Assembly (NCBI GenBank): GCA_010015805.1
Contig: ML978122.1
Span: 2,762,453 to 2,826,452, forward strand
Reading direction: 5' to 3'
DNA from: Rhizodiscina lignyota
Taxonomy: Eukaryota
Length of the DNA stretch: 64,000 nucleotides
The first letter of the stretch is position 1, and every line of letters begins with the position of its first letter. The position numbers were made by a program, and so were the translations under genes. The notes beneath the pieces were generated by a model. It saw only the letters and a program-made list of their open reading frames with translations. It made no database searches and was not told where the DNA came from. This document shows, one piece after another, positions 16,748 through 36,480 of the stretch.

Positions 16748-17753
16748 GATTTTCCATCGATCTTACAAGGGCTCCATGTTCAAAGGAATTGTTAGGAACT
16801 CTCCTTAGCTTTAGGATTAACCCAATATCAAGGGTGACAAAAAAAGTCGCATCCCAACTGCGACGCCTTGAACTGCTAGGCTGTACGGAGTAGTCCTCGT
16901 TCGTTTGTCGATGTCATCTTCGAAGAAGATGTGCGTACTCCAGAAGTACTTTCCTGAGCATGTCAAACTAAGCTTCTGGATGTGCTCTCGCTCGCATTGG
17001 AGAGCAAACCTCATCTGCGCTAGACTTAGAGGTACATACACCCTCAACCTACGCCGTGGCGCGTCAGTTCCGTCAGTTCCGTCAGCCTTGGCCGCTATTT
17101 CTCGTTGAATAGCGGAGTTGACCGCTCGCAAAAAGTCGCTCGGGCTAGAAAGATTTGATGATGTTTGATTCCCGCAAGATACCCAAATCATTTGAGACGT
17201 TCAAAGTAAACCGTACTGTCAGTCAGGCAGGGAGGACGAAATGGATTCGACTAGAGTAGCTCTGCTCTACCTTGCTACGGCACGGGTTCGGCCCGATGCG
17301 CTTCAACACCCCCCCCTGCGCCACACCTCTGGGGAGTCAATCCACATTTCGCGTCAAATGGCAGGACAGCACCATGGGCCAGATGATGACCATTTACGAT
17401 CGTATGCGCACCTACGCAATTCCCACGACCTGGGAAGGTGGCTTCAAACTGTTGAAGATGATTGGATTCTGGTGCGCCCGCAGCCTCAATGGCGTTCTCT
17501 ATGTTTCAGGACTGCGGTGCAGCGGCAGAAACGGCGATACGCACGTCAGCCTTGCGGCACAGCAGTCCTGAATTAATGTACCGAAAGCTCTCTGTGCATA
17601 CGATGGCTCTGAGATTACTGCCGTGTCTTCATTTTGCTTCAACTTATGTATCTCAATATTCTCGCTTTCCAATTGTTTAGTAGTTTCTTTTCACCTAGAC
17701 AGGATTCTGACTGAATGATCTCCATTTTCGATTCATTGGTCCACATATAAACC

Positions 17754-20700
17754 ATGGACGATTCTTCTGTAGAGGATGCACGAGAGTTCATCGATAAGCT
17801 ACGATATGAAAATGGGGGCCTGACAAAAGAGGATAGAGAATATCTAGAAAACAGACCCACACTGCGTCAATCGTATGACAATCTACGCCGGAAGCTTGGG
17901 GTATCAACAAGAACGTGAGTTACTTCTAAAAAAAAATCATGCATCTTGGGTGTCCTGCCGATCCATACCGTGCTAATGTCTGAGTATCTAAAATAGTCTC
18001 GCTGAACAGTTATACGCAAAAGACACCCGCTTTGTGTACGAACTTATCCAGAATGCCGAAGACAACAACTACACTACTGTGAATGGCTTATCTGACCTCC
18101 CCTGGCTTCGTTTCGGCCTGTACCAAGATCGAATCGAGATTGATTCAAACGAAGATGGTTTCTCAAGGGCAAACATCAGAGCCATCTGCTCGACTGGCGA
18201 GAGTACCAAGACAAACGTCAGAGGTTACATTGGCGAAAAGGGCATTGGTTTCAAGTCGGTGTTTAAGGTTGCATATAAGGTGCACATTCAGTCCGGAGTA
18301 TATTCATTTGCGTTTGAGCACCAACGCGATGGAAACGACAATGGACTCGGAATGGTCACCCCAGTGAATGAACCACATCGTATAATCCCCGACGTGCGGA
18401 CTCGGATGATACTTTACCTTCTCAAGAGCTGCGATCAAGATTCACTTCGCAAAGATCTCCTCGACCTACCAGAGACCCTCCTGCTGTTCTTGAGGAAGTT
18501 GAAAAGACTGTCGATTCTCATCGCGCTCCAGGAGGATGCACCACAAGAGCGGCATTACTCCTTGACTTCATCCGGAAATCGTGCCACAATCCACAAAGCA
18601 ATACGGCCTTCTATATCGGATTCATCTAGGGATTATTTGATCACGCGTCGATGGGCCTCCAACATGCCACTCGACGGCGCTCGCAAAGGCATCACTGATG
18701 CAGAAATTGTACTTGCGTTCCCACTAGACGCACACAATGCTCCCATTGTCGAGGAGCAGCACGTATTTGCTTTTCTTCCACTGCGAAAGGTTGGCTACAA
18801 GGTCAGCTTAAAATTTTCTTCTGTCGATTTCTCTAATATAATTGACGGGTTTGGCCTAGTTCCTCATTCAATCCGATTTCATCGCCCAGGCAAGCCGTGA
18901 AGATGTGTTCGACAACAAGTGGAATAGACACCTCCTCGAGGAAATCAGTAAAACTTTCATGAACAGCGTCGATGCTTTTTTGGAACACCCAACCCTCAGG
19001 CATTGTTGGGTGCGATACATTCCAACCGACCGGATTGCGGATGAGTTTTGGGGACTTCTTCAAACCCAGATATTCTCCAGGGTCTCTTCTTGCAGCGTGT
19101 TCTCTTCGAGAGACAATTCTCTCTGGAAAGCGAAGGACTTGTACGTGGTGCCTCGTCAATATAGAGACGCCGCTATGCAGCCCTTGATACCTGACTACGT
19201 TGGCGGACCAACCGCATATATATCCGAAGACTACGATACGATCTTAGATGTTCCGATCTTGAGAAAACTAGGAACTACCACTCTGTCAACCGGAGGTTTT
19301 CTGGGCAGGATCAATAAAGATCTTGACCGCCTTCATCCCCGACTCCACACCATGCCGCCTCAGCTTGCAACCGACTGGCACACCAGAGTCGCTGATCAGC
19401 TAATAGCTGCTATTCAATTGAATTCTCGGAACCGTGACTTCCTGCGAAAGTTGCCAATTGTGCCACTGAACAATGGGAGATGGGTCCGAACGTTCAACGC
19501 TAGCGTCTTCTTTCCAACATCAGGCGGGACCGAAATTCCTCCTGACTTACCATTGAACCTCGTCAATGATGACGCACTCCAGAATGAGAGCCGGAAGAAG
19601 CTTTTCAGTCAACTCGGCATCGCTGAGTGTGCGCCAGCGAGGATCTTTCCGCTGATCGAGCAAACATATCCACTTTCCGATCAAAACTTTGACAAGAGCC
19701 TATCCCACGTCAAATTCATGTTCTGGCATCACAAAGAGCTCCCATCTCAAGGTTTACGCGTTTCACTGGCTCCAAACGACAACAGTGATTGGTTCAGGCC
19801 CAGTGACGTAGCGCATGGCTGGGTATACTGCCCCCTTCCTGGAGATGGATACGCCGCATCATCACTTATTCCGGCCTCCCTACCGGAAGAGTTGAGAGGC
19901 GAGATGCATTTTGTCAAGTCTGACTATTACAACATGCTTCGGCAGTGCCCCATCCGGAATGGCCAAGAAGGAGTCGATTGGTTCCGAGAATTCTTCCAAA
20001 TCAAGCATAATGTGCAGCTTTACTGGAGAAAATACTCGACTTCGACTTCATATGAACTGGACTATATTCGCAAGTGGCGTCCAGAGTCTTTGCTTGGGGT
20101 GCTTGAGGCCAGCTGGTTTCAGTATAATGAGTGCAAGGACTGGGACGATTCTTTCGCAGCCGCAGAAGTCCCAATACTTAAGTCACATCAGCGAAAGCGC
20201 CTTGACTCTACATATCTACCTCTTCCAAAGCTCGTATCAATCGTCCGAGGCCTGGATCTCGAAGATGACTTTGGCTTCATTCAAGAGCTACAATCCATTA
20301 CCGAGATTTCCTCCATCAAGTGGTCCTTTTTGAAACGCTTTGGGGTCTCTATCGAAGAGAGCGTGACATTTTGGCTAGCGCTCTTGACTCAAGCAAAGGC
20401 GAAGAAAGATATTGAATGCAGGATTATTTTTGAGATATATCGGAACTTGCAAAAGTTTAGCGCATCGCACGATGGAGACAAAATCCGGTCAGTCTCATCC
20501 TTGTCCGCTTTGCTTGACGTTAGCTAAATCTCAACCATAGGCGCGCCTTTGAACAGGATGTCATCTGTCTACCTCCAGAATCTCAGTCCGACAGTGCGGC
20601 ATGGATCGCCCTTGACTCATGTGTTTGGATGGGACCAGATTGGTTCACCTTCAAGACTCGCTTGGGGGCCTTGAAAGAGTACGGCACACTATACGGCATC

Positions 20701-22950
20701 TTCGTTAACACACTACGCACCAGCGATGCAAATTTGAATGACTTTTTGGCTTACCTACAATCTATTCAAGAATCCAAAACTTATCTGACGTCAAAAGATG
20801 AGGAACGAAAGATTACTTTGCTGTACAAGGAGCTTCAAGGTAACGTTACGGACGACACCGCAGTAAGACTTATTCGGTGCAGTAGTTCCCAAATTTGATA
20901 TCCAGTGTATGAGCCATTCTAATGTTTTTAGATCTCGATTTGAAGACCGAAAGCTTATCTACGATTCCCGAAACCTGACGTGGCATGCTCCATCTTCATG
21001 CATTTGGGCTGAAGATCGGATCCAGCTTCCCAGAAAGGTGTCTCTCGCTTCAGCATATAAGGGGTACCAGTCATTCTTCACCAAGACCCTTGGAGTCACC
21101 AAGCCAAACTTGCAGATGCACATCAATGCTCTGGAGCAGAAAGCTGCAAATGAGCCAGAGAAGCAAGATATACTGCAAGAGATGCTCAACATCTGCGCGT
21201 TCAACCCTACGCCGGATGCCCTCAAGAGACTGGGAAACTGCGAATGCTTTCCAATCAAGCCACAGTTGGGTAACCTCGCTTGGGTCAATGGCTCAAGCGA
21301 TTTCGCAATTATAGATCGTCGTGAATATGGTGAACTTTTCAGCGGAAAACTCAAAATCTTGGATCTCACGTTAGAGGAAGTCCACAGCATCAAGGACTTC
21401 CTCGATGCGATGCAGTTAGAGGAGAGATACTTGTCGAGTGCTGTCAAGCCTAAGACTAGCGCCGAAGGTGGCTCGCTCAGCCGGACACTGACGGATGATC
21501 TGAGAAAGAAATCATATGCGATTTGTCGGTGAGTTTTCACAAGTTCAAGTTCCACACGGCGCTAACCTTTGCAGTTTTGCCGCTCACTTCGGCAGTGCGA
21601 GAGTCAGACGGGACCCAGCTACTGTACAGTCGATGCTTCAGAGCATGGAAGTCTACAGCAGTAGCGGCATATCAATGTCCCTGTCGATCAAACAAGCAGA
21701 CCGTGAGGTGACGATCGATCAAAAGAGAGCCTACTTCCACCTTAAAGAAGAGGAGGGTAAGCTGACACTCTATGTTCCAAAAAATGGGGCCCAGCGACAA
21801 GTATGTTATGCGTCTGAGCTTCCAGCTGCGATTCTCAAACATTTCGGTGCTCAAACTGCGGAATCTGCACGATTTGGCCACGTAATCGCTGCACCTGGCC
21901 TTTCTGCTGTCAACGAGCTTCTCGAAATCAATGGGATCATCGAGGTTGCTGGAATAGAAACACCAAACGACGATAGTGGATACGAATCCGATTCAACAGA
22001 AGGCGTGGATACACCACCTGGCAACTCTGCGACACCGCTCGAGTCGACGTCCTTGCACGAAATAGCACAGTCATCCTCGCATCAGGCCGCGTCTCCCTCT
22101 TCTCGAGAGGCATTCCCTCCAACGGTTGTAGAAGAACCAGAAGTGGCACCAGCTCCCTCAAGTTTTGCACCATCTCGATCTCCTACCCCACAGCCACGAG
22201 TGGACCAGTACAGGGAGCTGTTAGATGTTTTGATTCGGCAAGCACAGGGACTGTCAAGCCTTCCCCATGCTGGACAAACCATTCGGGCAGCGGCGGCTGT
22301 GGAAGACCGTGGACTGAATACTGTATTCGCAGTGGAGTCGTCCACTCCTGGGGAAAGGGAATTTAGGATAGGTGCAGCTGGAGAGCTGTTCGTATGTGTA
22401 TCCTAAAGCGCGACCAGCACCGCAACCAAAGCGTGCTAACATGATACAGGTGTTTGAAGTGCTGAAAAGCCTTGCGCTTCCGAACTTCTCGCTTAACCAT
22501 TGGCAGAGCACGATCCGTGGCCGAGTCAGTGTACATGACGACTACCAGGGTATTCGTAACTGGATAGGCACCGAAACCGCTGATATTGTCTATCACGACT
22601 ACCGTAGTGCGCTCACTGAAAGGCTGATCAGCCTGGGCTATTTGGGCTCCGCGTGGAGAGCCCGCACTCCGACCTACTACATCGAAGTCAAGTCGACTTT
22701 AGGGCTGCTGGAGATGCCGTTCTTCTGCAGTCAACCACAAGTTTCTCGCATGGACGGTATGCGATTGTCGGCCTCAAATCCGCTTTCAAACGATGTCTAT
22801 CTCATCTTCAGAGTATTTACGTTAGGTGACAGAACCGGATTCAAGATCTACTTCGATCCTGGTACTCTAAAGCACGAAGGCGAGTTGGAATTTAGAGCCG
22901 ATAAGTTTGCTGTGACATCACGACTCCGATTTCATCATGACGGGTTATAG
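17754..22950 (+). CDS. Sacsin/NO VEIN-like GHKL ATPase with a C-terminal DUF3883/NOV_C-like PD-(D/E)xK nuclease domain (~1,614 aa)
   Basis: Exons 17754-17914, 17997-18801, 18860-20487, 20541-20876, 20932-21528, 21575-22391 and 22450-22950 join in frame (4,845 nt). N-terminus has YELIQNAEDN, SNEDGFS, STK..IGEKGIGFKSVF and FLIQSDF..ASREDV..WN. C-terminus has IGAAGELFVFE, ADIVY, YYIEVKST and FFCSQPQ. Confidence 0.85.
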
Positions 22951-23319
22951 ATAGAGTATATGTTGCACTCGATGGTAGTTTGATCTGAGCACGGCCCTTT
23001 ATTTCCTAGAACCGATAACTCGGCAACATGCGGTGGATCAGGACGATTTTGGCAATCATAGAAGGTAACCTCAGGAAATTGTATTTGTCGTCGCTTATGC
23101 AATTTGATACACGATTACTGACCCGACTCGCTGTAAAAACAAATGAAAAGTAAAAGACCGTAAAGTCTAGATGCTGAGCCAATCAGAGGGGGTATTTAGC
23201 CATTCAGAACTCCGTCGCGCGATGCATCTGACAATCTCTCCTGTCCGCAGGATGCCCATTCAAACGCCCAAATCCAAATGCAAATTAGGGTAAGAAAACA
23301 AAGCAAGAAAAGAGTGATT

Positions 23320-26300
23320 CTATGCCTCCGCCATCACCTGCTCGCCTTCATCCAACATGTTCATAATCAGCGCTACCTTGCGCACCATCTCATTTGCCTG
23401 GCCAACGAGTAGAAGCTTCTCCGCATTCGATGGAAGACCAAGATATGTTGGAGGCTCGCGCTCAGGCAAATTCTTCACCCAATCCATAAACTCTCTCCAT
23501 CCAGTGCCCGCTGGCAGAGTGAGAACCTGGCTGTTTTCAGCCTGCGCTCCGGTAGGCTGGATGTCCTTGATGATATTGTAGTTCTCCTCGAATGCCGCAG
23601 GTGTCATGAAACCAGTAACCAGCTTGTTGAGGGTTTTGAAGTCACTCTCGTCATCAATCTTTCCGCCATACATCTCAGTCGTCAAAGTGCGAAGCATATC
23701 CCAGGGGATATTCTTCGGAGCAACGTTCGTTCTTCCGCCCGCAACAGATTCAACCCATGTATCAATGATGAAGCTGCAGCACTCGTACTATGAAACATTA
23801 GCATCTGTAGAATAACAAGCAGACTCAAAGAACTTACGTCGCTATCATTGAACTCCCAGAAACCCTTCCATCCGAGCGTTGGAGCATAACGTAGTCTCTC
23901 TTGAATGACCGCATGAAGGAAGCATAACAAGAGGTAGATACGGCCGCGTTCGACAGGCTGCTTGGTTGCTCTTGCAGAGAGAGATGATAGAGAGTCCTTC
24001 ATGTTTGCCCTGATTCCAGCGGGCTGCTCGTACATCAAGACTCGAGATGCTCGAAGTAGGTTGACAGGGATCTTGGGATTCGTCTCCATTGACAAGAACA
24101 AGCGGAAGTCCGGATGTGGTTTGAGCGAGTCGATACGTTTCTCAAGACTCTGAAGCCACTGCGGAGCCAGATGTACGTTCTTGACAATGACCCAGGAGCC
24201 AGTTTGGGCTGCATTACTCACAGCTTTGTCTGCGCTGGCCAGGCCTTCATTCGAACCCATGGCAATGGCTGCACAAGTAGCATGCATCCTTTCGACGAGG
24301 TTATCGACTTTGTAGCTCGCGTCGAAACCTGGACTAGAGCTTAACGCGATCGGAACACCCGCGGATACTTGCTTCACGACATCCTCTAGGTCTCCAGTAA
24401 CATCAAGAATGCCATCTCCAAATACAGAAGTGACGAATCGCTCTGCAGCTGGGACCATGCGATCGACGCGGAAGATCCTGATAAGAATGAGGGAGAGTAG
24501 ACCTTGGTCGAGTGGGCTAGTATCTTCAGGCCATACTTGTGGCACATATTTCTCTGCAAATTCTTGAGTCGAGAACTCGTTCCAGGCTGAAGTTGGGATG
24601 TCGGCGATATGCTCCTTGAAGAGGCGATGCTTCGAAGCTCGCTCCATGACCTCATCAGATCGATGTGGGTGAGTTGAAACATCCACCCCTACGATATCCT
24701 CATCGAGAACAGCATCGATCAGCTGCTTGTCCATCTTGTATGGTGCAGCCTGTGCAAGAAGCATAGCAAAGACGACACGATCTCTCTGTAAGAGAGACAA
24801 CGATGTCCGACGGTAACTGACGGAAAAGAGGTTCTTGAGAATAAAGTCGATCCTCGCGTTGTGGCTTGTTTCTGCGGATCGCCTGGCTTCTCTAAGAACG
24901 TACTCGAAAATGTCGACAAAGAACTGCAGCGAGAATTGATAGAAGTGGTTAATGTGGTGAAGTTGTTCCAGAACAGCAAAAATCGCTGAGCAGGATCGAG
25001 CGATAACGGAGTATTGTTGGGTGACGTTGTCGACCTCTTGCATGACACCTTGTGTCTCTGCTGCCTTAGCATTGATCTCTGCAGCTTCCTTCTTCAGCGT
25101 CTCGAGAGTTTCCATAACGCGGTCATCGTCAAGAATGTTTCCGCGTGATTCGTTAAGAGCCTGAAGCAAGCGCTTCTCGAGATGCCGCAGACGAAGACTG
25201 AATTCACCTTGCATCTTAATCAGGTTGGATCGGCGCTCATCGACATCGGGACGCTCGGACTTGAGTACTTCGTTGAGTGATTGAGTCTGAAGACTGCTCT
25301 GGGTGACTGTGAAGTTGACGAACGTTGTTCGAGAGCATATGTCAGGAGCGAAAGTAGCCGACGGATCGCGAGTAGACAGGAAAAGCTTGAACGATGGCGA
25401 AAAGTCGATCTCTTGTTTGCCAAGCTGGATGAGAACACGACCACCTGTCTTCTGGTACTCCTTGTTAAGGACATGCGTGAGGATAGGATCCAGGTGTTCA
25501 GCATCTTGGATCAAGATTGGATTACCGAAACGCAAAGAGCTCTCCAGCTGCTTCACGAAAGAATCATCCAAGAAGCTAGTGACAGTGAGCCTGCGATCTT
25601 TACATTCATTCTGCAAGAACTCGGTGACACGGCCAGATGGATCGATGATAAGTGGGTATCGGTTGAAGCGCTTGAGGATGATCGCATTCTCAGTGCAGAG
25701 ATCATCGACTGGAAGTGAGTTCTCTTGCCACTTGAGACGTTCGTCTGCTGTCGAAAGGTACTCCGTTACTGGGTTGATTGGCTTGTACTGAATGTTGGAC
25801 AGTGACATATGGTGAAGCCAGTCTTCGGTCATTGCTTTTCTGTATTGCTGATCGTAGAAGCCTCCATATGCAATGAAAGCTGCTGCAACAAGGACGTCGC
25901 CAACAATCGTATCGATTTGAGTCGAAAAGGATCGGCTACTCTCTTCCCAACGTGCGCGCTCGGATGACAAACTGTCAAGGAGCCTCATGCTACGGTCGAC
26001 CTTCGACTGAACGCTGCTCATCTCCGATTTGATGGCCTGAGTTTCGCTGATGAGCGCAGCATATTCGGTCTTGTAAGTAGCAATGCTCTTTTCCAGATTC
26101 TTAATTGTTTCGTCGATGGCCTGCGCCTCTGCCTTGGTCTGTAAAGCCGCTTCTTCAAGCTCTTGAACTTCTTCCCTGAGCGGGCCGACTCTGTCGAGAA
26201 TCTCCGAGTAGGTGACCTGAGCCTCCACCCACTGCACAAGCGGACCGCAGGCTTTGCTGGCCCTGTTAACACGCTCAAACGAGAAGTCGTCCTTGGACAA

Positions 26301-29300
26301 GAATTCATTCCGCATCCTGATACGATGGTTCCTGGTCATCTGTCGCTCATTGTCATAGTTGACGATGCTTGCAATGAAGTCATCCTTTCTTACGATAGCC
26401 TGAATATCCTTCCAATTTGCCACCTTGTGACCAAGAAGAGTGCAAACAGATTCCAATGCTAGCTTAACACCAGACGGAGGATTCTGCATTGATCTGACTT
26501 CAGTAAGATGTTGACGCTTGATATTGCTGACACTCTTCTTTGCCTCTGCGACTGCGGGTTCGGCGTTTGCAAGATCGTTGAGCACAACTTCACGACGGGT
26601 CTCAACTTCCTGCTCCTGCTTTTCGAGCGCAGCTTGGATCTCAAGGGAAGCCGACTTCCGTTGCTCAGCTTCGCGCTGATCAGCAATCATACGTTGCAGC
26701 TTCTCGTTTGCCTCTGCATCCTTCTTCTCGAGTTGACCCTGCTTTGCCGCGAGGCTCTTGCGAAGATCGCTGACTTTGTCCACAGTCTCTCGTAACTTGT
26801 CGAGACCGACGTTGAGATGCCGTTGCTGCTCTTCAAGGTCTTCTCGCTTCTCGTGGTATAGCTTGACGTACTGCGCAACAAAATCAAGGAAGTGGCGAGG
26901 AGTAAGGTATGTGATCTTATTCTGCTGCTTCTGAAGGCGAACGCTGAGTTTCTGCAGTGAATAATGGACATAGACCATAGCATTAACAACTGCATCGCGA
27001 TGGTTGAGTGGTAGGCTGAGCTCGCGATAGACCAACTGTACGCTGTCCGGCGCAGAATAAGATGGCCGATCAAGATCGACGCTCTGTGTAAGCTCAGAAC
27101 CAACCTGGAATAGAGCTTGGTCGGACCAGTCTCCAAACCAGTTGAGGACGCAACGATTGAACAGGGCAGGGCTAGTCGCAGCTTTTGAAGAGAGACCTTC
27201 CTCTGGCGGGTTCATAGTGAAAACAACGTGAAGGTTCTTGACGATTTGCTGTGTAAACCACTTGTAAAGCTCTTCTTGGGAGTCCAGAAGAAGGCCCTGT
27301 CGCTGAGCTCCTTCGCGGCAAGCAGTCATGAGAGTTGCATATTCGTCGCCTTCAAAAAGACCCGGTACTTCAGCATTGGCGAGAAGCGTGTTCATGCGCT
27401 CCAGGAAACCCGAATCAAGGACATTGGACTCGTCCATGATGAAGCAGACCTTCTCACCCTTACAGCCGCAGCGTCGAAGTACATTTCGCAGATCCTCATC
27501 GAAGTCCTCAGCGGAGTATTTGCCGTGGACTTTGATCTGGAAGACCGTAAGGCCATTCATCCAAGCTACGAAACGGGACAATGTCGTCTTGCCACTGCCA
27601 CTGACACCGATCAGGATCAGATGGCCTTGCGGTTGCCGGAAGACACGATCGATGCGGAGAACGTGTTCTAGCACGTCGTTGAACAGGATGAGTGGCACGT
27701 CGAGCTCTTCTTCGCAGAAAGTCTTGAGACGAGCTTTGACGAAGTCGCGGAGTTGCTCCCTCTCCACAGGTACGTAATTCTTCGATAGCCAGTTGGAAAA
27801 CAGTATTGGACCTCCCAAGGCCTTATCTTCATCAATGGTAGGGAAGTGCTCGAGAGCAATCCGCTGCACGCTGTCTTGCGTCCAATTTCGCTCATCCTCG
27901 TCAATGAGACGATCCTGGAAGAGTCGAAGGGCCTCGTGCGCCCAAATGCGGACTAGGCCTTCCAGCGTGAGACTCTCAAGTGGCTTGATAGCCTCATACA
28001 AGCCCCGAACCCACCTAGTCAACTCACGAGGCGAGTAGACATAGTGTGGTTGGATATCCGGTGTGAAGCGCTTCTGCGACTCGGAGTACAACTGCACCAT
28101 GGCCTTCGTAAGAGGCTCGGCATAGCCACGCAAAGCTGGGATGATCTTCAGCACGGCGTTGTTGAACGTGCCGTAGATCTGGTGAAGTGACAATTCGCCC
28201 GGATAGTCGACCATCACGAGAGGCGCATGACGAAGGAATCGGAAGCCCATAGGTGTACGTCCAGCATCTGTAGGAGGGTTGCAAGCGCCGACGAACTGTA
28301 TGCGGTCAAGAGTAACCCAGGTCTTGTCGCTTGTCCTCCAGAAGCCATTCTGTTCAATGAGCTGACGCAAGAATGAAATTGCTCGCTGAGTGCCATAGTG
28401 ATCTGGAGCAGGCAGGTTGATTTCGTCGCAGAAGATGACTAGCCAGCGTCCAATTTGCGACGGTGTGAGCATAACACCATTCAGTGTCTTCTTGTACTCG
28501 CAGTATTGCTCGAAAGTCTTGATCAGTAGATCTGGAGTTGTTGCGCTTGAGAAATTCAAGCCTACGACCTCCATGTTGGGAAGTTTTCGCAGCGCACTGA
28601 ACAATGTCATGGTTTTACCGGAACCTGGAGGACCACAGAGAATGAGTGGTTTGTGCTCTGCGAGCCATGAGTAAAGGATGTCCTCGTGCCGAACGGTGTC
28701 AAGTGTCGGTATGACCACGTCCGTCTGAGTTACTGAATGTGTGTTGACCTCAATAGAAGGCACTTGAGATTGCCACATCGTCCAATCTGCAGTTGGGAGA
28801 GAGACATCAAAGTCAATGAGCGAAGTGCCCTGGCCGAGTGGAGGTACATCAACTGTCGTGAGACCTGCTATGTGATCCCCAAAGAGTTTTCTCTCTGATA
28901 GTGGGCAGTCGCCAGTGAAAGACCAAGTCATCGCTAGAAGCAGCTTCTTCGAGAGGTATGCATCGATCTGTTCAACCTCAAGTGGGAAATCCGGGTGCTG
29001 AATATTGTACTCAAGCAACGAGCGGCAGGCCTTATTAAGCAGCGAGAAGAGAGTCTTCAGTGCACGAATATCGCTATACTCCATAATGTGGCGGAGAGGA
29101 CGGGCTTCAGTGAGAGCCTTATGGACAAGCTGCTCGCTCTGTAGATGGGCTTGGAGGAAATCGGCGGCCTGGCCTTGAACAGTGAGCAGCTTCTGAGGTA
29201 ACTGGCCAGGCGGTACTGTCTCGTCCTCTACATCTTCGAATGGCAGCTGGCGAAGGGCAGAAAGGTAGTTCTCGACCATCATGTCTGTTGTAACCGTATC

Positions 29301-32300
29301 ATCGCTGAACCAAACCATACCACAACGACTGACTGTAGCAAGAGTAGCGTATTTGAGGGTCTCGACTTCGAACATGATGCGAACATTCGCAGGCAGATTG
29401 AGGCGCTCTCCATTCGGCAAGGTGAGCAGCTTGTTATCATCAAGAACACTGTTCAAGTTCTCAACCCATTCGGGATCAACGTCACCATCGAAGACGATCC
29501 AGTGTCTCTTTGTGTCTTCACCACGGAGGTTGTCGACGATCTTTCGCAGGATGCTCGTGAATAAACCGTCTGTCCACTCACGCGTCGTGCTGTCGAGACT
29601 ACCGTACAGGTGCTCTTTGCTCATGACCTTAGGATCGATAACGTGGCAAACACCTTCGACGCCTTCCACCTTCTGCAGCGCCTGGAGGAGAATCCTCCAC
29701 GCACTGGACTTGCCAGAGCCTGAGGAGCCCACCATCATGACACCATGATGTAGGCATTGAATCTGGTAGAGTTGGATGACCTTGGCCATCCAGGAATCGC
29801 TGACCACGAATCGAGATGCAGCAGCAACCTCGCGGATTGCCTTCTTGAGCTCTTCAAGTGGAGCAGGTACGTACTCGACACCAGGGAAGGACTCTGCCTC
29901 GATTGTCTCCATGACTTCAGCATCCTGCCGGATCAACTTGGGTCCCATGGTTTCGCGTAAACTTTGCACAATGATCTGTGGCTCCAGAATGTCGTCATGA
30001 AGGCTCTGATCTCCCTTTGTCGACAGTCTTGCGCGCTTCAGTCCTCCCGAACTAACAAGCACGCTCTTCAGGGCACGTAATCCGAAGTCGTAATGTGCCT
30101 GCTTTGACAAGCTCGCAGCGCATTTATCGAAGAACGGTACGGTTTGCTTGCTGAGCTCCTTTGCCCTTGAGAAGCCCTGTGAGAACAGCATAACTTCTGC
30201 GATAAGTTCCTTGTCGGGCTTGGACATGGCAACACTTCGGAATAGCTTCTTCAAGTTGTCTGGAAGATTAGAACGCCCAGCGTAGCCCGGATTCATGGTG
30301 ACAAAGATTCCAGTATTGTTGTGAACGTGCAAGCTACGACCAACGAGGTCGATTTGAACCTTCTCATCGACTACACCGCGACGCAGACCAAGCTGGATAT
30401 TTTGTATCTGCTGAGACACTGCGGACAAAATGCGCTCTTCGAGACGGTTGAATTCGTCAAAGCAACCCCAAGCGCCGACTTGGCAGATACCAAGGAAGAT
30501 CCGTCCCATGGCTTGGAAGTCAAAGGTATCGTCGCAGCAGAACACTAATGTGAAGCGACCAAGCTGAACACCAAGTGCTTTGACTGACTCTGTCTTACCA
30601 GTACCAGCAGGTCCATATGGCGATCCACCCAGCCTCTGGCAAAGGGCTTGAGTGAGAGTGAGGAAGCATCGGTCTGTGAGCGGTGTTCGAACGAGGCGCT
30701 CCGCCACACCAAGATACTCAAACCCGTAGGGAATGATTGCGTTCGCCATTTTAACCTTCAGCCGATCGAGCAACTCTCCTTCGTTCGCGTACACGTAGCG
30801 CATCTGGAGTTGCCACATGTAGTAGTTGGGTGAGTCGGCGTTTGCAGCTTTCAGCTTGCCAATTACATCGCGTTGATGGACGAATTCGGTGATGAGATGC
30901 TCTGACTTTCGCCTCTGTAATGGTTCCAAGTTTCCAAGTACAGACGAAGCCAGCAACCGAAGCAACTCGACGTGGCGATCATAAAGTGCTCCCAGGGATG
31001 CACCACCTTCTCGAAGCGACTCCTCGACAGATGCAGTCCAACAGCACTGGGTAGCCAGGACGACGATCTGAGCCGGGAAAGCAGACATGTAAGCTTCGAA
31101 AGCCGCTGCATCAAGGGTGTCAGCTTCGACAATTGCCTTGAATTGTTCCGATGCGTCCACCAAGAGTTCGGCAAGAGTGACCTTCATGCTGTGTTCAAGT
31201 GCACCGAGCCACTCATTGACCTTGGGGGTCTTGATGAGAGAAACTTCGCGCTTCATCATAACCTCTTCCCCTTCCTTCGAAACGAAGCCGATAATAGTCG
31301 TGTCTTCAGTCGTGATGAGACCGGCGAGGCCGGCGAACATTTTGCGAAGGTGTTTCGCGACGCGCCCAGTGTCATTGCTGTTGCCAATGATCTCCAGCAA
31401 GTCCTCGTCGCCGACAAAGTAGAAGCGTGGGAAAGATACGCGCTCACGCTCAAGGTATTCTCCCAATGCTTTTTGGATCTTGTTGAGTAGCTCTGCCAAT
31501 CGCTCGAGAGACTTCTGCACTCCTGCAATGCTGAGAACCTCCATGACGAATGGCTGCTTCGCGACCTTCCGCATGACTGAAAGGAACTCATTGTCGATGT
31601 TCTGGAAACGCGAAGATTCCAGCGGGAGCAAATGTTTGATATCAGCATTGCCGGTGAAGACGCCCTCAAGGTAGACCCATTGCCTCTGCACATCTATCCA
31701 AACATCGAACAAGACGTGGACGCGGTTGAGCTTCTCTTCCCAGAGCGACGCATCCTCCTCAAATTCTTTGTAGTAGGGGGAATGTCGCATAGCTTGGAGA
31801 GAGTTCAAGTTCTCGGAGCATTTTGCGAACAAGTCGTCCCAGCCGCGAATCAATCGGCATTTGTTGTGATAATTGACCAGGTCCAGGGAGTAGTTCTGCC
31901 AAGTCTCTTTCACTTGCCGAATGAACTCTTCCAATGCCATCTCACCTTGCGCTTGAGCAATGACATCTCGGATAATGACTTCGTTTGCGCTGAGATTGAG
32001 ATCCCAGACATCGCCAAGCGTCATCGAGAGTTGAGAATAACGCTTTGACGGTTTGAGGGTTTTAAAGATGCGGTTCCAGTGTCTTTCCCTTACAGCCTCA
32101 GATCTCATATCTGCAAGTAGCGGGTTCATCTTCAGTAGCTGGCGCAGCTGGTTCTGTACATGCTCGAATGCCGCGTACTGTCGCATTCGGCTAGGCATCT
32201 CCTTGGTCATTTTAATGAGGTTGTCAAGAGACTGGCGCAACTTGCGTGGCTGAATGCTATTCCACAGAGACTCCCGGAGTTCATTGATGCTGTTCCAGAT

Positions 32301-35300
32301 TGTCCCAAGGGCTGCCCAGACGGACTGGAAGTCTTGTACTTCCTCCAGTAGAGTTGAAAGTGCCGTTTCTGGGCTGGCAGGAAGATCCAAGGCTTCTTTC
32401 GCTTTCGCTACCATCTCAGATTCTGACTGGAGCTGCGTGAGCTTGCTGCTAAAAGATTGGAGAGTCAACGAAGCCTGCTCGTGTGGAATAAGGCCGGAGA
32501 CGGGTTTCTCCTCATTCCATTGCGTACTGATCTCTGTGATCTTTTGGTGAACGAGCTTGTCTTCTGCAACAATCTTTGCACGGAGTGCATCAGTCTGGTC
32601 CTGAACGATCTTTGCCTTGCGCTCAAGGATATCGTTCAAAATAGCCCACTCGTGATCAATCTGGTCGACATGCAGCCAGTCCGCAGGGAATTGATGGCGT
32701 TGTCGTTGAAGCATCGTCTGGCCCTGACGAAACACCTCGACTTCTGGTGTCCAAGCTTTGACCTTCCGCTTCGATTGTTGGACGACAGTAATGAATGCAA
32801 CCGCGTGACCGGTAGTTGAAGCCTCCAGTGACTGGCTCTCCAAATCTTTGCGGGCCTTCTCGATATCTGCGTGGACTTCGACCATACGGGTCCCAAGCTT
32901 CCCCGCAAATCGAACCAATATATCGTGTTGCCATTGGTCGTACTTCGCATTAACCTTCATCTGCACTTGCTCGTAGTCCACGTTTACGTGACCAAATGAT
33001 CTGCTGACTTCAGAGGTGTCAAAAGTTGACCGGCTCTTCCTGATCTCTTGCAGAAGCTGGAGCCATTGCCCTAGGTCGTCTCCAAGGGCGTCGTATACTT
33101 GCTCTGCGCGGAGATCCCAAAGAGATTGAAACTGTAACCACTTCGCAATGTATTCGTTTACATGGCCCAGACGCTCCTCGATGGCGTCGTAGACTCGGGA
33201 CAAGGCTTCCATGCAGCGCACTGGAAGTTCGATATATAGAGACTCGGCCAAAACCTCTGAGTCCTGCACACGATGCTCATATCTTGTAGCCTTGACTGTC
33301 TGTAGGTTGCAGACGATGCCAATCCAAGAATGAAGCTGTTCTAACCATGCAGCTCTCGCGTACTCTAGAGGCGGCTCCAAGAAGATGACTTGGTTGCGCA
33401 TTGAGATTTCCAGTACCAGTTGATTTAGTTTTGGCACGTTGCGCTGCATCGGATCTAGATCTTGGTCGGCGTCCCTACTCCTTGGTCTGTCAAATGATGT
33501 CTCATTACTGGTAAAGACTTCAATCCAGTCGTCGATAGCGCGCTGAAGTCTTGCGGTAAGGATATCCTCGATCTTGCCATTCAGCTCAGAAACCCAATAA
33601 GACAAGTTGACATAGTTCTGGAGGTGAAGCTGATCGACAGAGTTTTGGATTGAGTCGAGCGTTCTCTGGAAGGCTTCCTCGGTGTACGGGCAGGTCTCTA
33701 ATTCCGCCAAGCAATTCTGAATGGTAGAATGCAAAGTGGTAAGAGTCGTAGACTTCTTTTGCAGCTCCTCGACGGCGTGGGCAAACTCTCGCACAAACTG
33801 AACGTGCTTGCTCTCGCCTCGCACTCCACTCGTGTCTCCAGGTGCAAGCGTACCGTGCCGAATATGCAGGTCGTAAGCGTGTACAAAAGACTCCCATCTC
33901 AAATACACGCCTTTGGCGATCAAGGCCCGGACATCATTTCCGTACCCGCTTAAGAGAATGGTAACATCTCCTAGTTCCGTGACGGAGCGTTGCGTCTGAG
34001 CGTAGGTACGAATGCTTTCCATCATACTAACAGCGTACGGGTACACGCGTTTAGCTTCCTTGGAAACATTGTTGATAGCATGTGGGACCTGATAATTTAG
34101 CCACAGCAGATTCCGCACTTCCTTGAAGAGCACGATGATCTGGGGGTCAAAATTAACATTGATCTCAAGCACATTGCCGGCTGCGCGGTTGCGTGTTATC
34201 GTGAAGAGGCGCCCTGATATCGAGAGGTTACGTCGCGCGACGTTCTGATACCAGGACTCGAAAATGGGCCGCGTTTCGAGCTTCTTTCGGAACATGCTGC
34301 TCTCGTTTTGCAACTTCTGTCCCTCTGCGTGGAGGGCCCAGTTCTCGCCAAGAATGTCCTCGACTTTCTTCATGTACGCGTCCAGTTGTCGCTCGATTTG
34401 TCTGGCCCAAATGATTGCGCCAGAAACTGGAGGGATATCTCTAAGGCTTGCCATGGCATGCGCTTCCGATTTACCGTACTGCTGCTTGAACCGCTCATGC
34501 AACTGAAGGATATCATCCTTGACATTGTCGATCAATTGCGTCTGGTACTCGGATATTGCGCTTCGGATCTTGGGTCGCACAAACAGCGCGTTGAACTTGG
34601 AGAAGACTCGGAACATCTCATTGGCGTTCTTCGCTATCGCAAGTCGGTCTCTCAGCCTGGCTATGATCGAATTCTCGACTCGCGCAGTCCGCTCATTGTA
34701 AAGCTCTTCGGCATGCGCCCAGATTTGTGTGCCTTCTGGGGACACGTCCAGGACGTCCACATCTTTAAGCGCAGCATAGGCCTGCGAAACTTCTTCCACA
34801 GCATCAACATCACCAATTTCTTCAACGATGACCGGGCCAGTTCCATTAGCCAATTCTGCAGTGTCCTTTGGTCCTGTTGTTGGGCCTAACACGTTGACAA
34901 TCGTTCGCTGCAGCTGCTCGTGGTTATGCCTGAAGTTGTTGATATATTTTAGGCGATCCTGTGTCTTGATGTGCCTTGCCGTAATGCGGATTGGGATAAA
35001 TCTATCATTTCGCTTCCTCGTAACTTCGCGGGCTACATTGGTGAACTCCTTAACATTGTAATCCCACGCCATCCAGATCTCATCAGCGCTCTTCATGAGT
35101 GTCTGAAACTCGGGGAATTCCAAGTGCATCAAAGATCTGCCGCGCATGAGAGTATGCAGTCTGTCGTCAAGATCGCCAGAGATTGCTTCCACAAGAGGTA
35201 ACGCCCGCTGTACTGGATATGGACTTATGCGCAGCTTCTTGTTCATGTGCACAAAGATTTGGTCGATCGATTCCTTCACCTTCTGCAGAGATGTTGCCGA

Positions 35301-36480
35301 CAACAACTCATCTAGAGGGAACTCGCGCATGAGTTGGTTATAGCGCTGCACAAGATCCATCTTCTCTTTCAGTCCGGTATCCGTGCTAAAGCTGATTGCC
35401 GTACCAAATCGTTTCGCATTCTTCAATACCTCGAGCGTGAGAAGGACGCCACCACTACGCAGCTGACTCTCAATAGAGTCTAGTCTCGCTTCCATGGCCA
35501 ACCAAAAGTTGATCTCTTGTGAGGCAGTTCCTTGCGTTGGGTCCCTCGACGTGTCTGTTATCGTGCGTATCGCCTTGATCCACCCATTGACAGAGGTCTG
35601 TAACTGATTATGGAAGGCCGGATCGTCCGTTAAGGTCTTTGGCTTGATCATGTCGATCGTCAGCTGTTGGCCTTTTGGCTCGGCCTCCTCCACAGCTTCT
35701 TGGATGACCGGATGAAGTGGGAGAGACAAGGCAGGGATCTCGACATTTTGCTGCAGCTGCAAGAGATTCAGTTCCAGCTCTGCAATCTTGCGCTTCGTGC
35801 CAGGTATGCCAGTCCGTGCATCGCTGTCTGCCTTGCTCCAAGTCCGGTTCAGCACGTCGTTGTTCTTTGTCAGGGCCTCAAAGTATGGTCCCAGAGCGTA
35901 GTGAAGATACGTATGCACCACCCCTGATGCAGCAGCGGACGAGCCTTGATTTGCGGCTGCGGCATCTTGACTTGATATACCTGGTAGGTATATGACCTGG
36001 ACTTGTGATGTAATCGGAATTTGAGGGTCTAGTGGCTGCGCATTTGGTTTGAGAATGGCAATGGTAGCAACGCAGGTCGGCGAATTCGAGAGGTCTGAAG
36101 AGAGTGTATAGGTGAAGCGTTGAGAAGGTACTGGTAATCTTTGTCAGTATATAAATTTTGATTGCTTGGGAGATATTAAACTAACATGCTGTACCGTTTG
36201 CGCCGTTGGTGTGTAGTGGCTCGGCCTCAACGTCTTTTCGAACATACAGTGCTGCAGCCTGCGGCTCTGAAGCAAATCGCGAACAACGTTGCAGAGTTTC
36301 TGGCAACTCTGATTGCGACAGAAAGCTCGGATATGCTTCCAAGTCAGACTTTGGAGCTCCTAAGGTGACGGTGATGAGATTCGAGAGATGGTCCACCAAC
36401 ACTTGGGGGTCGAATGTTGGTGGACTGGCAGCGTTGGCGATGCCGTTGGCCCCTGGCGGAGCGACCAGAGGGCCTTCCAT
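23320..36480 (-). CDS. DYN1: Cytoplasmic dynein heavy chain (NudA/Ro-1/Dyn1)
   Basis: Over 4,300 codons in 3 exons (introns ~36185-36132 and ~23837-23788). Four P-loops [24 protein letters not shown] and [16 protein letters not shown]; stalk coiled coil; [17 protein letters not shown]. Confidence 0.99.

Follow-up and report, generated by a model that had tools for sequence, protein, structure and literature searches.

We find that a gene at positions 17754..22950 (+ strand) of a 64,000-nt stretch of the Rhizodiscina lignyota genome (assembly GCA_010015805.1, contig ML978122.1, positions 2,762,453 to 2,826,452; hereafter the window) is almost certainly intact and encodes a fungal sacsin-type GHL ATPase of the Tiamat/NO VEIN branch. 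Tiamat (TmtA), reportedly discovered by Millman et al. in 2022, is an anti-phage system that Bacillus cereus and other prokaryotes encode in a single gene, and the protein of R. lignyota, a Dothideomycete of the order Aulographales, has its parts in the same order: a lead-in, an Hsp90-like ATPase with a transducer-like extension, a sacsin-repeat region of about 850 residues that ends in a beta-sheet domain, a disordered linker of about 70 residues and a PD-(D/E)xK nuclease. Taken as a whole, the locus is with moderate confidence best explained as encoding an ATP-driven Tiamat-type nuclease, for which a role against non-self or selfish DNA is favored over housekeeping. The protein adds a member to an already described fungal Tiamat-like group and is nothing different in kind.

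Relationship to Tiamat and architecture of the protein

The gene consists of seven exons (Table 1), which a script joined into a coding sequence of 4845 nt that specifies 1614 amino acids (aa) and has its sole stop at the end. Stop-to-stop open reading frame (ORF) pieces between 17751 and 22950 of the + strand are spread over three frames. An earlier reading of this DNA, made from its letters without database searches (the sequence-only reading), had proposed that such fragments and a first exon splice into one uninterrupted gene; our joined exons give the same length, and the splices have the support of homology. The start ATG at 17754 is immediately preceded by an in-frame TAA. The corresponding public protein, P0151 ('hypothetical protein NA57DRAFT_31443 [Rhizodiscina lignyota]', 1617 aa), is 100% identical over the exon 3 search region, carries the UniRef name 'Protein NO VEIN C-terminal domain-containing protein' and differs from the 1614-aa model solely at residues 965–976. 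A DNA-type contig from the Logan re-assembly, possibly built from the same reads as the window, is letter-identical over 17700–23000.

Table 1. Features of the Tiamat-like gene of R. lignyota, in window coordinates.
Feature	Position	Strand	Basis or remark
Exon 1, short N-terminal helical lead-in (residues 1–53)	17754..17914	+	In-frame TAA upstream; profile alignment
Intron 1	17915–17996	+	GT..AG, 82 nt
Exon 2, Hsp90/sacsin-type GHL ATPase domain	17997..18801	+	Pfam SACS, PADLOC TmtA, invariant residues
ELIQNAED (motif I)	18040–18063	+	
NEDGF	18148–18162	+	
GEKGIGFKS	18232–18258	+	
Intron 2	18802–18859	+	GT..AG, 58 nt
Exons 3–5, family-specific middle: transducer-like ATPase extension and sacsin-repeat/solenoid part	18860..21528	+	hhalign; fold names from preprints
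Intron 3	20488–20540	+	GT..AG, 53 nt
Intron 4 region, three candidate donors	20840..20931	+	GTAACG 20840 (public, acceptor 20885); GTAAGA 20863; GTGCAG 20877
Intron 4	20877–20931	+	GT..AG, 55 nt; donor GTGCAG
Intron 5	21529–21574	+	GT..AG, 46 nt
Compact domain, first 135 residues of exon 6	21576..21980	+	Predicted structure
Disordered Ser/Pro/Thr/Glu-rich linker tethering the nuclease domain	21981..22190	+	pLDDT, composition
PD-(D/E)xK (NOV_C-type) nuclease domain, interrupted by intron 6	22194..22947	+	Model, motifs, fold matches, hhalign
GAAGE	22371–22385	+	Catalytic candidate E 22383–22385
Intron 6	22392–22449	+	GT..AG, 58 nt; splits nuclease domain
ETADIVY	22573–22593	+	Catalytic candidate D 22582–22584
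YYIEVKST	22675–22698	+	Catalytic candidate E-V-K 22684–22692
FFCSQPQ	22720–22740	+	Holds Q
Stop codon TAG	22948–22950	+	

The relationship to Tiamat is carried by profile comparisons. The PADLOC TmtA models (PDLC03964-03972) were the top match in nine of nine fungal proteins, and on the R. lignyota protein they matched residues 10–584 with E 2.1e-74. An hhalign comparison set a profile built from 27 fungal proteins against one of 11 prokaryotic proteins, and the two aligned with a probability of 100% (E 1.5e-117) over 1054 columns, fungal columns 5–1225. The C-terminal parts alone, fungal against prokaryotic Tiamat, aligned with a probability of 96.4% (E 1.2e-9, 111 columns), in a match that spans the GAAGE helix, the EVK strand, the S..Q helix and the terminal strands. 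As both the whole-length and the C-terminal profiles match, the homology to Tiamat runs the whole length of the protein. The sequence-only reading had foreseen a prokaryotic counterpart of the restriction type; Tiamat, which it did not name, is that counterpart.

The prokaryotic sequences stem from a scan of one genome per species, which gave at least 532 loci with relatives, about 30% identical over the first 580 residues. ORFs were derived for 30 of the 79 loci kept, and 16 long ones were scanned with Pfam: SACS was present in all 16 (above cut-off in 13) and NOV_C above cut-off in 11, and these 11 ORFs with both domains, canonical Tiamat proteins, make up the prokaryotic profile. Among the relatives without NOV_C are L028:4974-9593, L012, L018, L033 and L035. 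One archaeal ORF has a weak HNH match at the NOV_C position, in keeping with reports that Tiamat-like proteins swap their effectors.

Further likenesses to Tiamat are a similar length (about 1500–1650 aa in the prokaryotic ORFs), common ATPase motifs and, by comparison with the Tiamat preprint, a nuclease that hangs on a disordered tether and is followed by additional C-terminal strands (10.64898/2026.09.30.754977). The fungal gene, in contrast, is eukaryotic, is interrupted by six introns and has a function that is predicted, its nuclease domain contains two insertions, and the sampled fungal sequences stand apart from the sampled prokaryotic ones.

Two preprints, both dated 1 October 2026, describe relatives of this protein. 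The first reports Tiamat homologues across eukaryotes, Ascomycota included, and defines a Type I-A with a divergent PD-(D/E)xK domain that is missed by InterProScan and occurs in bacteria, archaea and eukaryotes (10.64898/2026.09.30.754977); this description fits the R. lignyota protein. Fungal fusions to a C-terminal heterokaryon-incompatibility (HET; het-6-like) domain form its Type VII (10.64898/2026.09.30.754977). P0151 gave no match to a HET domain and is not of the HET-fused type. The second preprint relates the plant protein NO VEIN (NOV) to Tiamat, separates the fungal homologues widely from the NOVs of plants and animals in its tree, and describes fungi as holding the Tiamat-like core only, sparsely and in a manner consistent with transfers from prokaryotes (10.64898/2026.09.30.755639). 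The fungal Tiamat-like proteins of both preprints have the Tiamat core without the NOV N-terminus, as here (10.64898/2026.09.30.754977, 10.64898/2026.09.30.755639). Arabidopsis NOV and the fungal protein share the ATPase, the sacsin-repeat middle, the beta-sheet motif, the NOV_C nuclease and conserved active sites, but NOV has a long conserved N-terminal region that the R. lignyota protein lacks (10.64898/2026.09.30.755639). In R. lignyota the ATPase is preceded by only 54 residues, which leaves no long NOV-type region with its three conserved eukaryote-specific motifs; in hhalign, column 5 of the fungal profile (about residue 1) aligned with column 1 of the prokaryotic Tiamat profile.

All seven motifs that the sequence-only reading had quoted were located (Table 1). 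In the ATPase domain, Pfam SACS matched exon 2 at 40.7 bits (cut-off 32.8), and E69, Q72, N73, N105, E106, G108 and the GEKGIGFKS loop (G133–S141) are invariant among 27 fungal sequences. E69 would correspond to E44 of B. cereus Tiamat, to judge by the ELIQNA(D/E)D motif common to both and by what is generally known of the Bergerat fold. Among solved structures in the PDB, the family profile weakly matched the N-domains of Hsp90, TRAP1 and sacsin, while exon 2 alone found no match among PDB sequences. Human sacsin belongs to the same ATPase family (Pfam SACS), and its PDB chain 5v44 is one of the weak profile matches; it differs from the fungal protein, with its single repeat and PD-(D/E)xK nuclease, in having three repeats together with J and HEPN domains. 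The Pfam scan of P0151 gave one SACS match, no DnaJ and no HEPN.

The last 232 residues were modelled from a 27-row alignment with a predicted local distance difference test score (pLDDT) of 92.5 and a predicted template modelling score (pTM) of 0.91. The model has the candidate E on helix 54–73, the D at the start of strand 112–115, EVK in strand 141–148, the Q on helix 161–169 and extra strands at the C-terminal end. In domain numbering, E64, D111, E145 and V146 do not vary among the 27 sequences, and conservation of K147 reaches at least 90%. A structure comparison against 48,161 representative chains found a homing endonuclease, Hjc, a viral nuclease and restriction enzymes at Z scores of 5.0–5.8; among the 50 rows listed from it, all but about two presumably have the restriction-enzyme fold, judged by their titles and general knowledge. 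When candidates from Foldseek were re-compared, 50 of 50 listed rows were restriction-enzyme-fold nucleases, and the best structural match was the SPARDA nuclease domain (Z 7.1, root-mean-square deviation 4.1, 118 aligned). In this domain and in the Hjc resolvases (Z about 6) the E, D and ExK are placed alike, on helix 1 and strands 2 and 3, although at 9–16% identity there is no detectable sequence relationship, and two insertions set the fungal domain apart, one separating helix 1 from the D strand and one lying between the D and EVK strands. A language-model look-up (Atlas) placed 27 of 30 feature matches in NOV_C clusters.

Several results speak against a nuclease assignment. Pfam NOV_C scored 11.9 bits on exon 7, below its cut-off of 22.1, and gave no match on P0151 at E ≤0.1; none of 28 fungal proteins reached the cut-off, the best scoring 21.1 bits. 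Foldseek with the nuclease model returned nothing at E ≤0.001, its top match being an Hjc resolvase with a probability of 0.84, and the fold-match scores are middling, with every Z below 8. The NOV_C score falls below the threshold because of these two insertions in the fungal domain; sub-threshold NOV_C matches were seen in 9 of 21 relatives. As every Z is below 8, it is the fold class that is supported, and not a particular family such as Hjc or SPARDA. Since the fold matches are uniform, the motifs are placed as in that fold and the profiles match, we assign the C-terminus to the PD-(D/E)xK class, and its predicted identity as a restriction-type nuclease domain with E, D and ExK intact is supported. 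The domain search and structure prediction that the sequence-only reading had suggested thus gave a SACS score above cut-off, a confidently modelled C-terminus and middling nuclease-fold matches, and the architecture it had proposed, a sacsin-like ATPase, a long middle, a linker and a NOV_C-type PD-(D/E)xK domain, is borne out by Pfam, PADLOC, the model, the fold matches and hhalign.

Between the two catalytic ends, residues 1–135 of the exon 6 model (pLDDT about 85–95) form a five-stranded sheet followed by three helices. This domain had no significant match among solved structures: a match of the exon 6 model to the SPRTN entry 6mdw was weak (E 0.42, probability 0.28), and a wide structure search mostly aligned the opposite end of the model. 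It is probably the 'beta-sheet motif' that ends the sacsin repeat in the NOV preprint (10.64898/2026.09.30.755639). Tiamat proteins are characterised by a metalloprotease-like (Wss1-type) pseudo-enzyme fold and TPR-like folds in their middle; in the part of the fungal protein modelled for this comparison, exon 6, the weak SPRTN match was the sole hint in that direction. The Ser/Pro/Glu-rich linker seen in the sequence-only reading is recovered, with Ser, Pro, Thr and Glu amounting to 47.5% of an 80-aa stretch; means of pLDDT over ten-residue blocks are 38–62 over exon 6 residues 131–200 and below 50 over 141–200, and residues 150–201 are predicted disordered. A Pfam DUF3684 match was seen neither in the exons and P0151 nor in 27 further fungal proteins and the 16 prokaryotic Tiamat-type ORFs, and as it is absent from the latter as well, the Pfam copy used does not discriminate. 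Neighbours in the Atlas include clusters with DUF3684 in 13–35% of members, and precomputed annotation gives PF27504 (DUF8348 in Pfam 38.1), placed no closer than beyond about residue 850. A comparison of the C-terminal exon with proteins of similar length yielded six fragments, none with a precomputed Pfam domain.

Copies, conservation and phylogeny in fungi

The preprints call the fungal members sparsely detected (10.64898/2026.09.30.754977, 10.64898/2026.09.30.755639), whereas here the ATPase exon matched 2811 proteins among 5188 candidates and exon 3 matched 1405 representatives of 50%-identity clusters (E ≤0.001), totals that are not gene counts because many of the matches are exon-sized metagenome fragments. 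Named matches come from five classes, Dothideomycetes, Leotiomycetes, Eurotiomycetes, Lecanoromycetes and Sordariomycetes, and the family is present in several species of Aspergillus. In the protein database, from which the copy numbers were taken, R. lignyota has two copies, Mytilinidion two and Eremomyces five; the family is thus not single-copy, whereas a single copy was among the features that the sequence-only reading had named as speaking against a conflict role. The second R. lignyota copy, P0179 (1288 aa), lies elsewhere in the genome, is 55% identical in the ATPase and keeps all five catalytic motifs.

We placed 56 named fungal proteins of at least 1250 aa and 16 prokaryotic ORFs, drawn from the 30 loci with derived ORFs, in a FastTree phylogeny of 1173 columns, with the root set on the prokaryotes by choice. 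All 56 fungal rows lie on one side of a single branch with support 98, so that the phylogeny with bacterial homologues proposed by the sequence-only reading sets the fungal proteins apart from the 16 prokaryotic ones. Within the fungi the classes are mixed. The window's protein falls in a seven-row group of Pleosporomycetidae and one sequence from Xylogone (Leotiomycetes), and P0179 is sister to a Botrytis group and not to the window's copy. The Xylogone sp. protein (P0152) is 86% identical over 1629 aa to P0153 of Mytilinidion resinicola, a Dothideomycete; this pair, nested in a Dothideomycete group, points to either transfer between fungi or a mislabelled strain. By simple patterns, all five catalytic motifs were found in 43 of the 56 proteins and the three nuclease motifs in 47, and some of the misses will be annotation errors. 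One protein that has no nuclease motifs is P0165 from Pyrenochaeta sp. (2163 aa), which in place of the nuclease carries a HET domain (110 bits, residues 1609–1760) and corresponds to the HET-fused type of the preprints.

The nearest relatives are 52–56% identical to the R. lignyota protein. Compared with the three nearest, the two catalytic ends are the best conserved parts: identity is 62–67% in the ATPase and 55–57% in the nuclease, as against 50–51% in the middle and 20–26% in the linker. Towards members from Aspergillus and Monosporascus the middle falls to 25–28% identity, with the ATPase at 45%. A scan of metagenomes gave 26 loci, the closest of which (61–68% identity) lie on contigs of 1.5–1.7 kb; it did not return the 9-kb contig behind P0174/P0168. 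A metagenome contig of 45 kb carries, directly upstream of a full-length relative of 36% identity to the window's protein, an open frame of 2468 aa (L081:2-7408) for which Pfam gave no match.

Mechanism, role and genomic surroundings

From B. cereus Tiamat and other GHL proteins we infer dimerisation, ATP gating and a substrate, and the mechanism that we regard as reasonably probable is an ATP-driven dimeric clamp with a tethered nuclease. Binding of ATP would close the N-terminal ATPase domains of the dimer, the middle region would hold a ligand, either protein or nucleic acid, and the tethered nuclease would then cut DNA, as single strands or by nicking a duplex if it acts like B. cereus Tiamat. 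According to the Tiamat preprint, it is for B. cereus Tiamat only that ATPase and DNase activity and antiviral protection have been shown; that protein cuts single-stranded DNA and nicks duplex DNA, and its nuclease domain is proposed to double as a dimerisation domain (10.64898/2026.09.30.754977). For the fungal members, literature searches on DUF3883/sacsin, Tiamat with fungi, and sacsin with heterokaryon incompatibility found no functional study, in agreement with what the sequence-only reading had stated.

As to the role, our preference is a tentative one: the protein may survey the cell for non-self or selfish DNA, or may act as a cell-death executioner in non-self recognition, and we favor such roles over housekeeping. 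The multiple copies of the family, its patchy occurrence and its HET-domain fusions make a defence role plausible, and the mixing of fungal classes in the tree, with the 86%-identical pair from two classes, likewise speaks for a part in conflict. A number of points weigh against it. The setting is ordinary gene-dense core genome and not an island. A DNase would have no effect on the RNA genomes that most known mycoviruses possess. The conserved catalytic residues are equally compatible with a housekeeping enzyme, and plant NOV has essential developmental roles outside defence. Both the function and the splicing of the fungal members are deduced from sequence, and at intron 4 of the present gene the best-looking donor, GTAAGA at 20863, would with the same acceptor bring a stop at codon 976 and truncate the protein before the nuclease.

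The surroundings depart from the sequence-only reading, which had placed the gene among non-core and decayed sequence. Pfam was run on 26 ORFs of at least 130 aa in the window; 16 matched ordinary cellular families and none of the 26 a transposon-type family. The neighbours include Pex2/12, Fip1, Nup49, HpcH aldolase, Lon protease, RsfS, NMD3, a Na/Ca exchanger, a SNF2-RING protein and a Zn-cluster factor. An aldehyde dehydrogenase gene lies directly upstream. The neighbour on the other side is a convergent single open frame of 4153 aa (23682–36143, − strand), whose end lies less than 400 nt from that of the gene and which from the ORF listing we take to be a cytoplasmic dynein heavy chain. 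There is no AT-rich block, the GC content being 0.45–0.60 throughout the window, and between 14000 and 26000 we found no direct repeats of at least 20 nt and two inverted repeats, both short and imperfect. A mobile-element context was considered and rejected, as there are neither flanking direct repeats nor transposon-type Pfam matches.

This setting among core genes, without island features, would agree with another reading, in which the protein, like plant NO VEIN, has been taken over as a housekeeping or regulatory nuclear enzyme that would act on the cell's own DNA or RNA, for instance in transcription-linked processes, chromatin or repair, and would have no part in conflict. The strong conservation of both catalytic ends fits such an enzyme, and so does the separation of the 56 fungal from the 16 prokaryotic sequences, which would agree with a long residence in fungi. 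In the NOV preprint, Arabidopsis NOV is described as nuclear and essential, and its authors suggest fundamental nuclear processes (10.64898/2026.09.30.755639), though knockdown of NOV is also reported there to weaken antiviral responses in a plant (10.64898/2026.09.30.755639). A housekeeping enzyme would, however, hardly be expected to form a multi-copy family with unequal copy numbers between species, to be as sparse or patchy in fungi as the preprints describe (10.64898/2026.09.30.754977, 10.64898/2026.09.30.755639), to occur in fusions with HET domains, to have a middle that evolves so much faster than its ATPase, or to be only about half identical to its nearest relatives. We therefore consider a pure housekeeping role rather unlikely, though it is the alternative that survives best.

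The splice of intron 4, remaining alternatives and significance

The one place where the gene model departs from the public annotation is intron 4, for which the annotation removes 20840–20885 and the 1614-aa model removes 20877–20931, a difference that changes 12–15 residues. In an alignment with 21 full-length relatives, the peptide before SRFED in the 1614-aa model fits the family pattern and is close to that of a Zopfia protein, whereas the annotated version does not fit. The homologues thus favor 20877–20931 over the annotated splice; it is the sole in-frame option with homologue support, and we regard it as the supported, if predicted, splice. The reading frame that we call uninterrupted accordingly depends on homology and not on transcripts.

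The donor of this intron, GTGCAG, is weak, and GTAAGA lies 14 nt upstream of it and would yield a 975-aa product without the nuclease; GTAAGA could reflect alternative splicing or be a mere decoy site. One could thus suppose that the gene is decaying or regulated off, with intron 4 spliced mainly at GTAAGA into an ATPase-only product and the full-length protein made rarely or never. The poor match of the in-frame donor would agree with this, as would the choice of a third donor in the public annotation. Yet all other exons are open, the peptide up to the GTGCAG donor matches the homologues well, and beyond intron 4 all the catalytic motifs remain intact and conserved, which is unexpected because under such decay that part would never be translated. 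On balance we find a gene lost or silenced in this way improbable. Weaker still, and in our view very improbable, is a sacsin-like chaperone of protein quality control whose C-terminal domain is a non-catalytic module for dimerisation or nucleic-acid binding: Pfam does point to the sacsin domain, N-domains of Hsp90, TRAP1 and sacsin are among the matches of the family profile, and the Tiamat nuclease domain has been proposed to dimerise, but the E, D and E-V-K, needless in a purely structural module, are invariant or nearly so in 27 sequences, P0151 has no J or HEPN domain, and the characterised relative is a DNase (10.64898/2026.09.30.754977).

Returning to the Tiamat-type nuclease that we favor, the analysis offers a corrected gene model for a public protein, a fungal nuclease domain divergent enough to drop below the Pfam NOV_C cut-off, and a hint of transfer between fungal classes. 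Fungi are informative for the question of what Tiamat does because related copies are fused to HET domains, and a fungus with two intact copies is a tractable case in which to ask whether an anti-phage module common to bacteria and eukaryotes still serves defence in fungi or now does something else. More speculatively, and with considerable doubt, we suggest that the large Pezizomycotina clade that includes this gene could form a family active in innate immunity or conflict. Its members would be ATP-gated DNases that use a fast-evolving middle to sense foreign or selfish DNA, or non-self proteins after hyphal fusion, and the diversity of the family would be kept up by gene birth, loss and transfer between classes. 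The sensed DNA may be that of single-stranded DNA viruses, or intermediates of transposons or plasmids. If this is true, the Pezizomycotina clade would be a fungal counterpart of a bacterial anti-phage system, and one that is directly testable.

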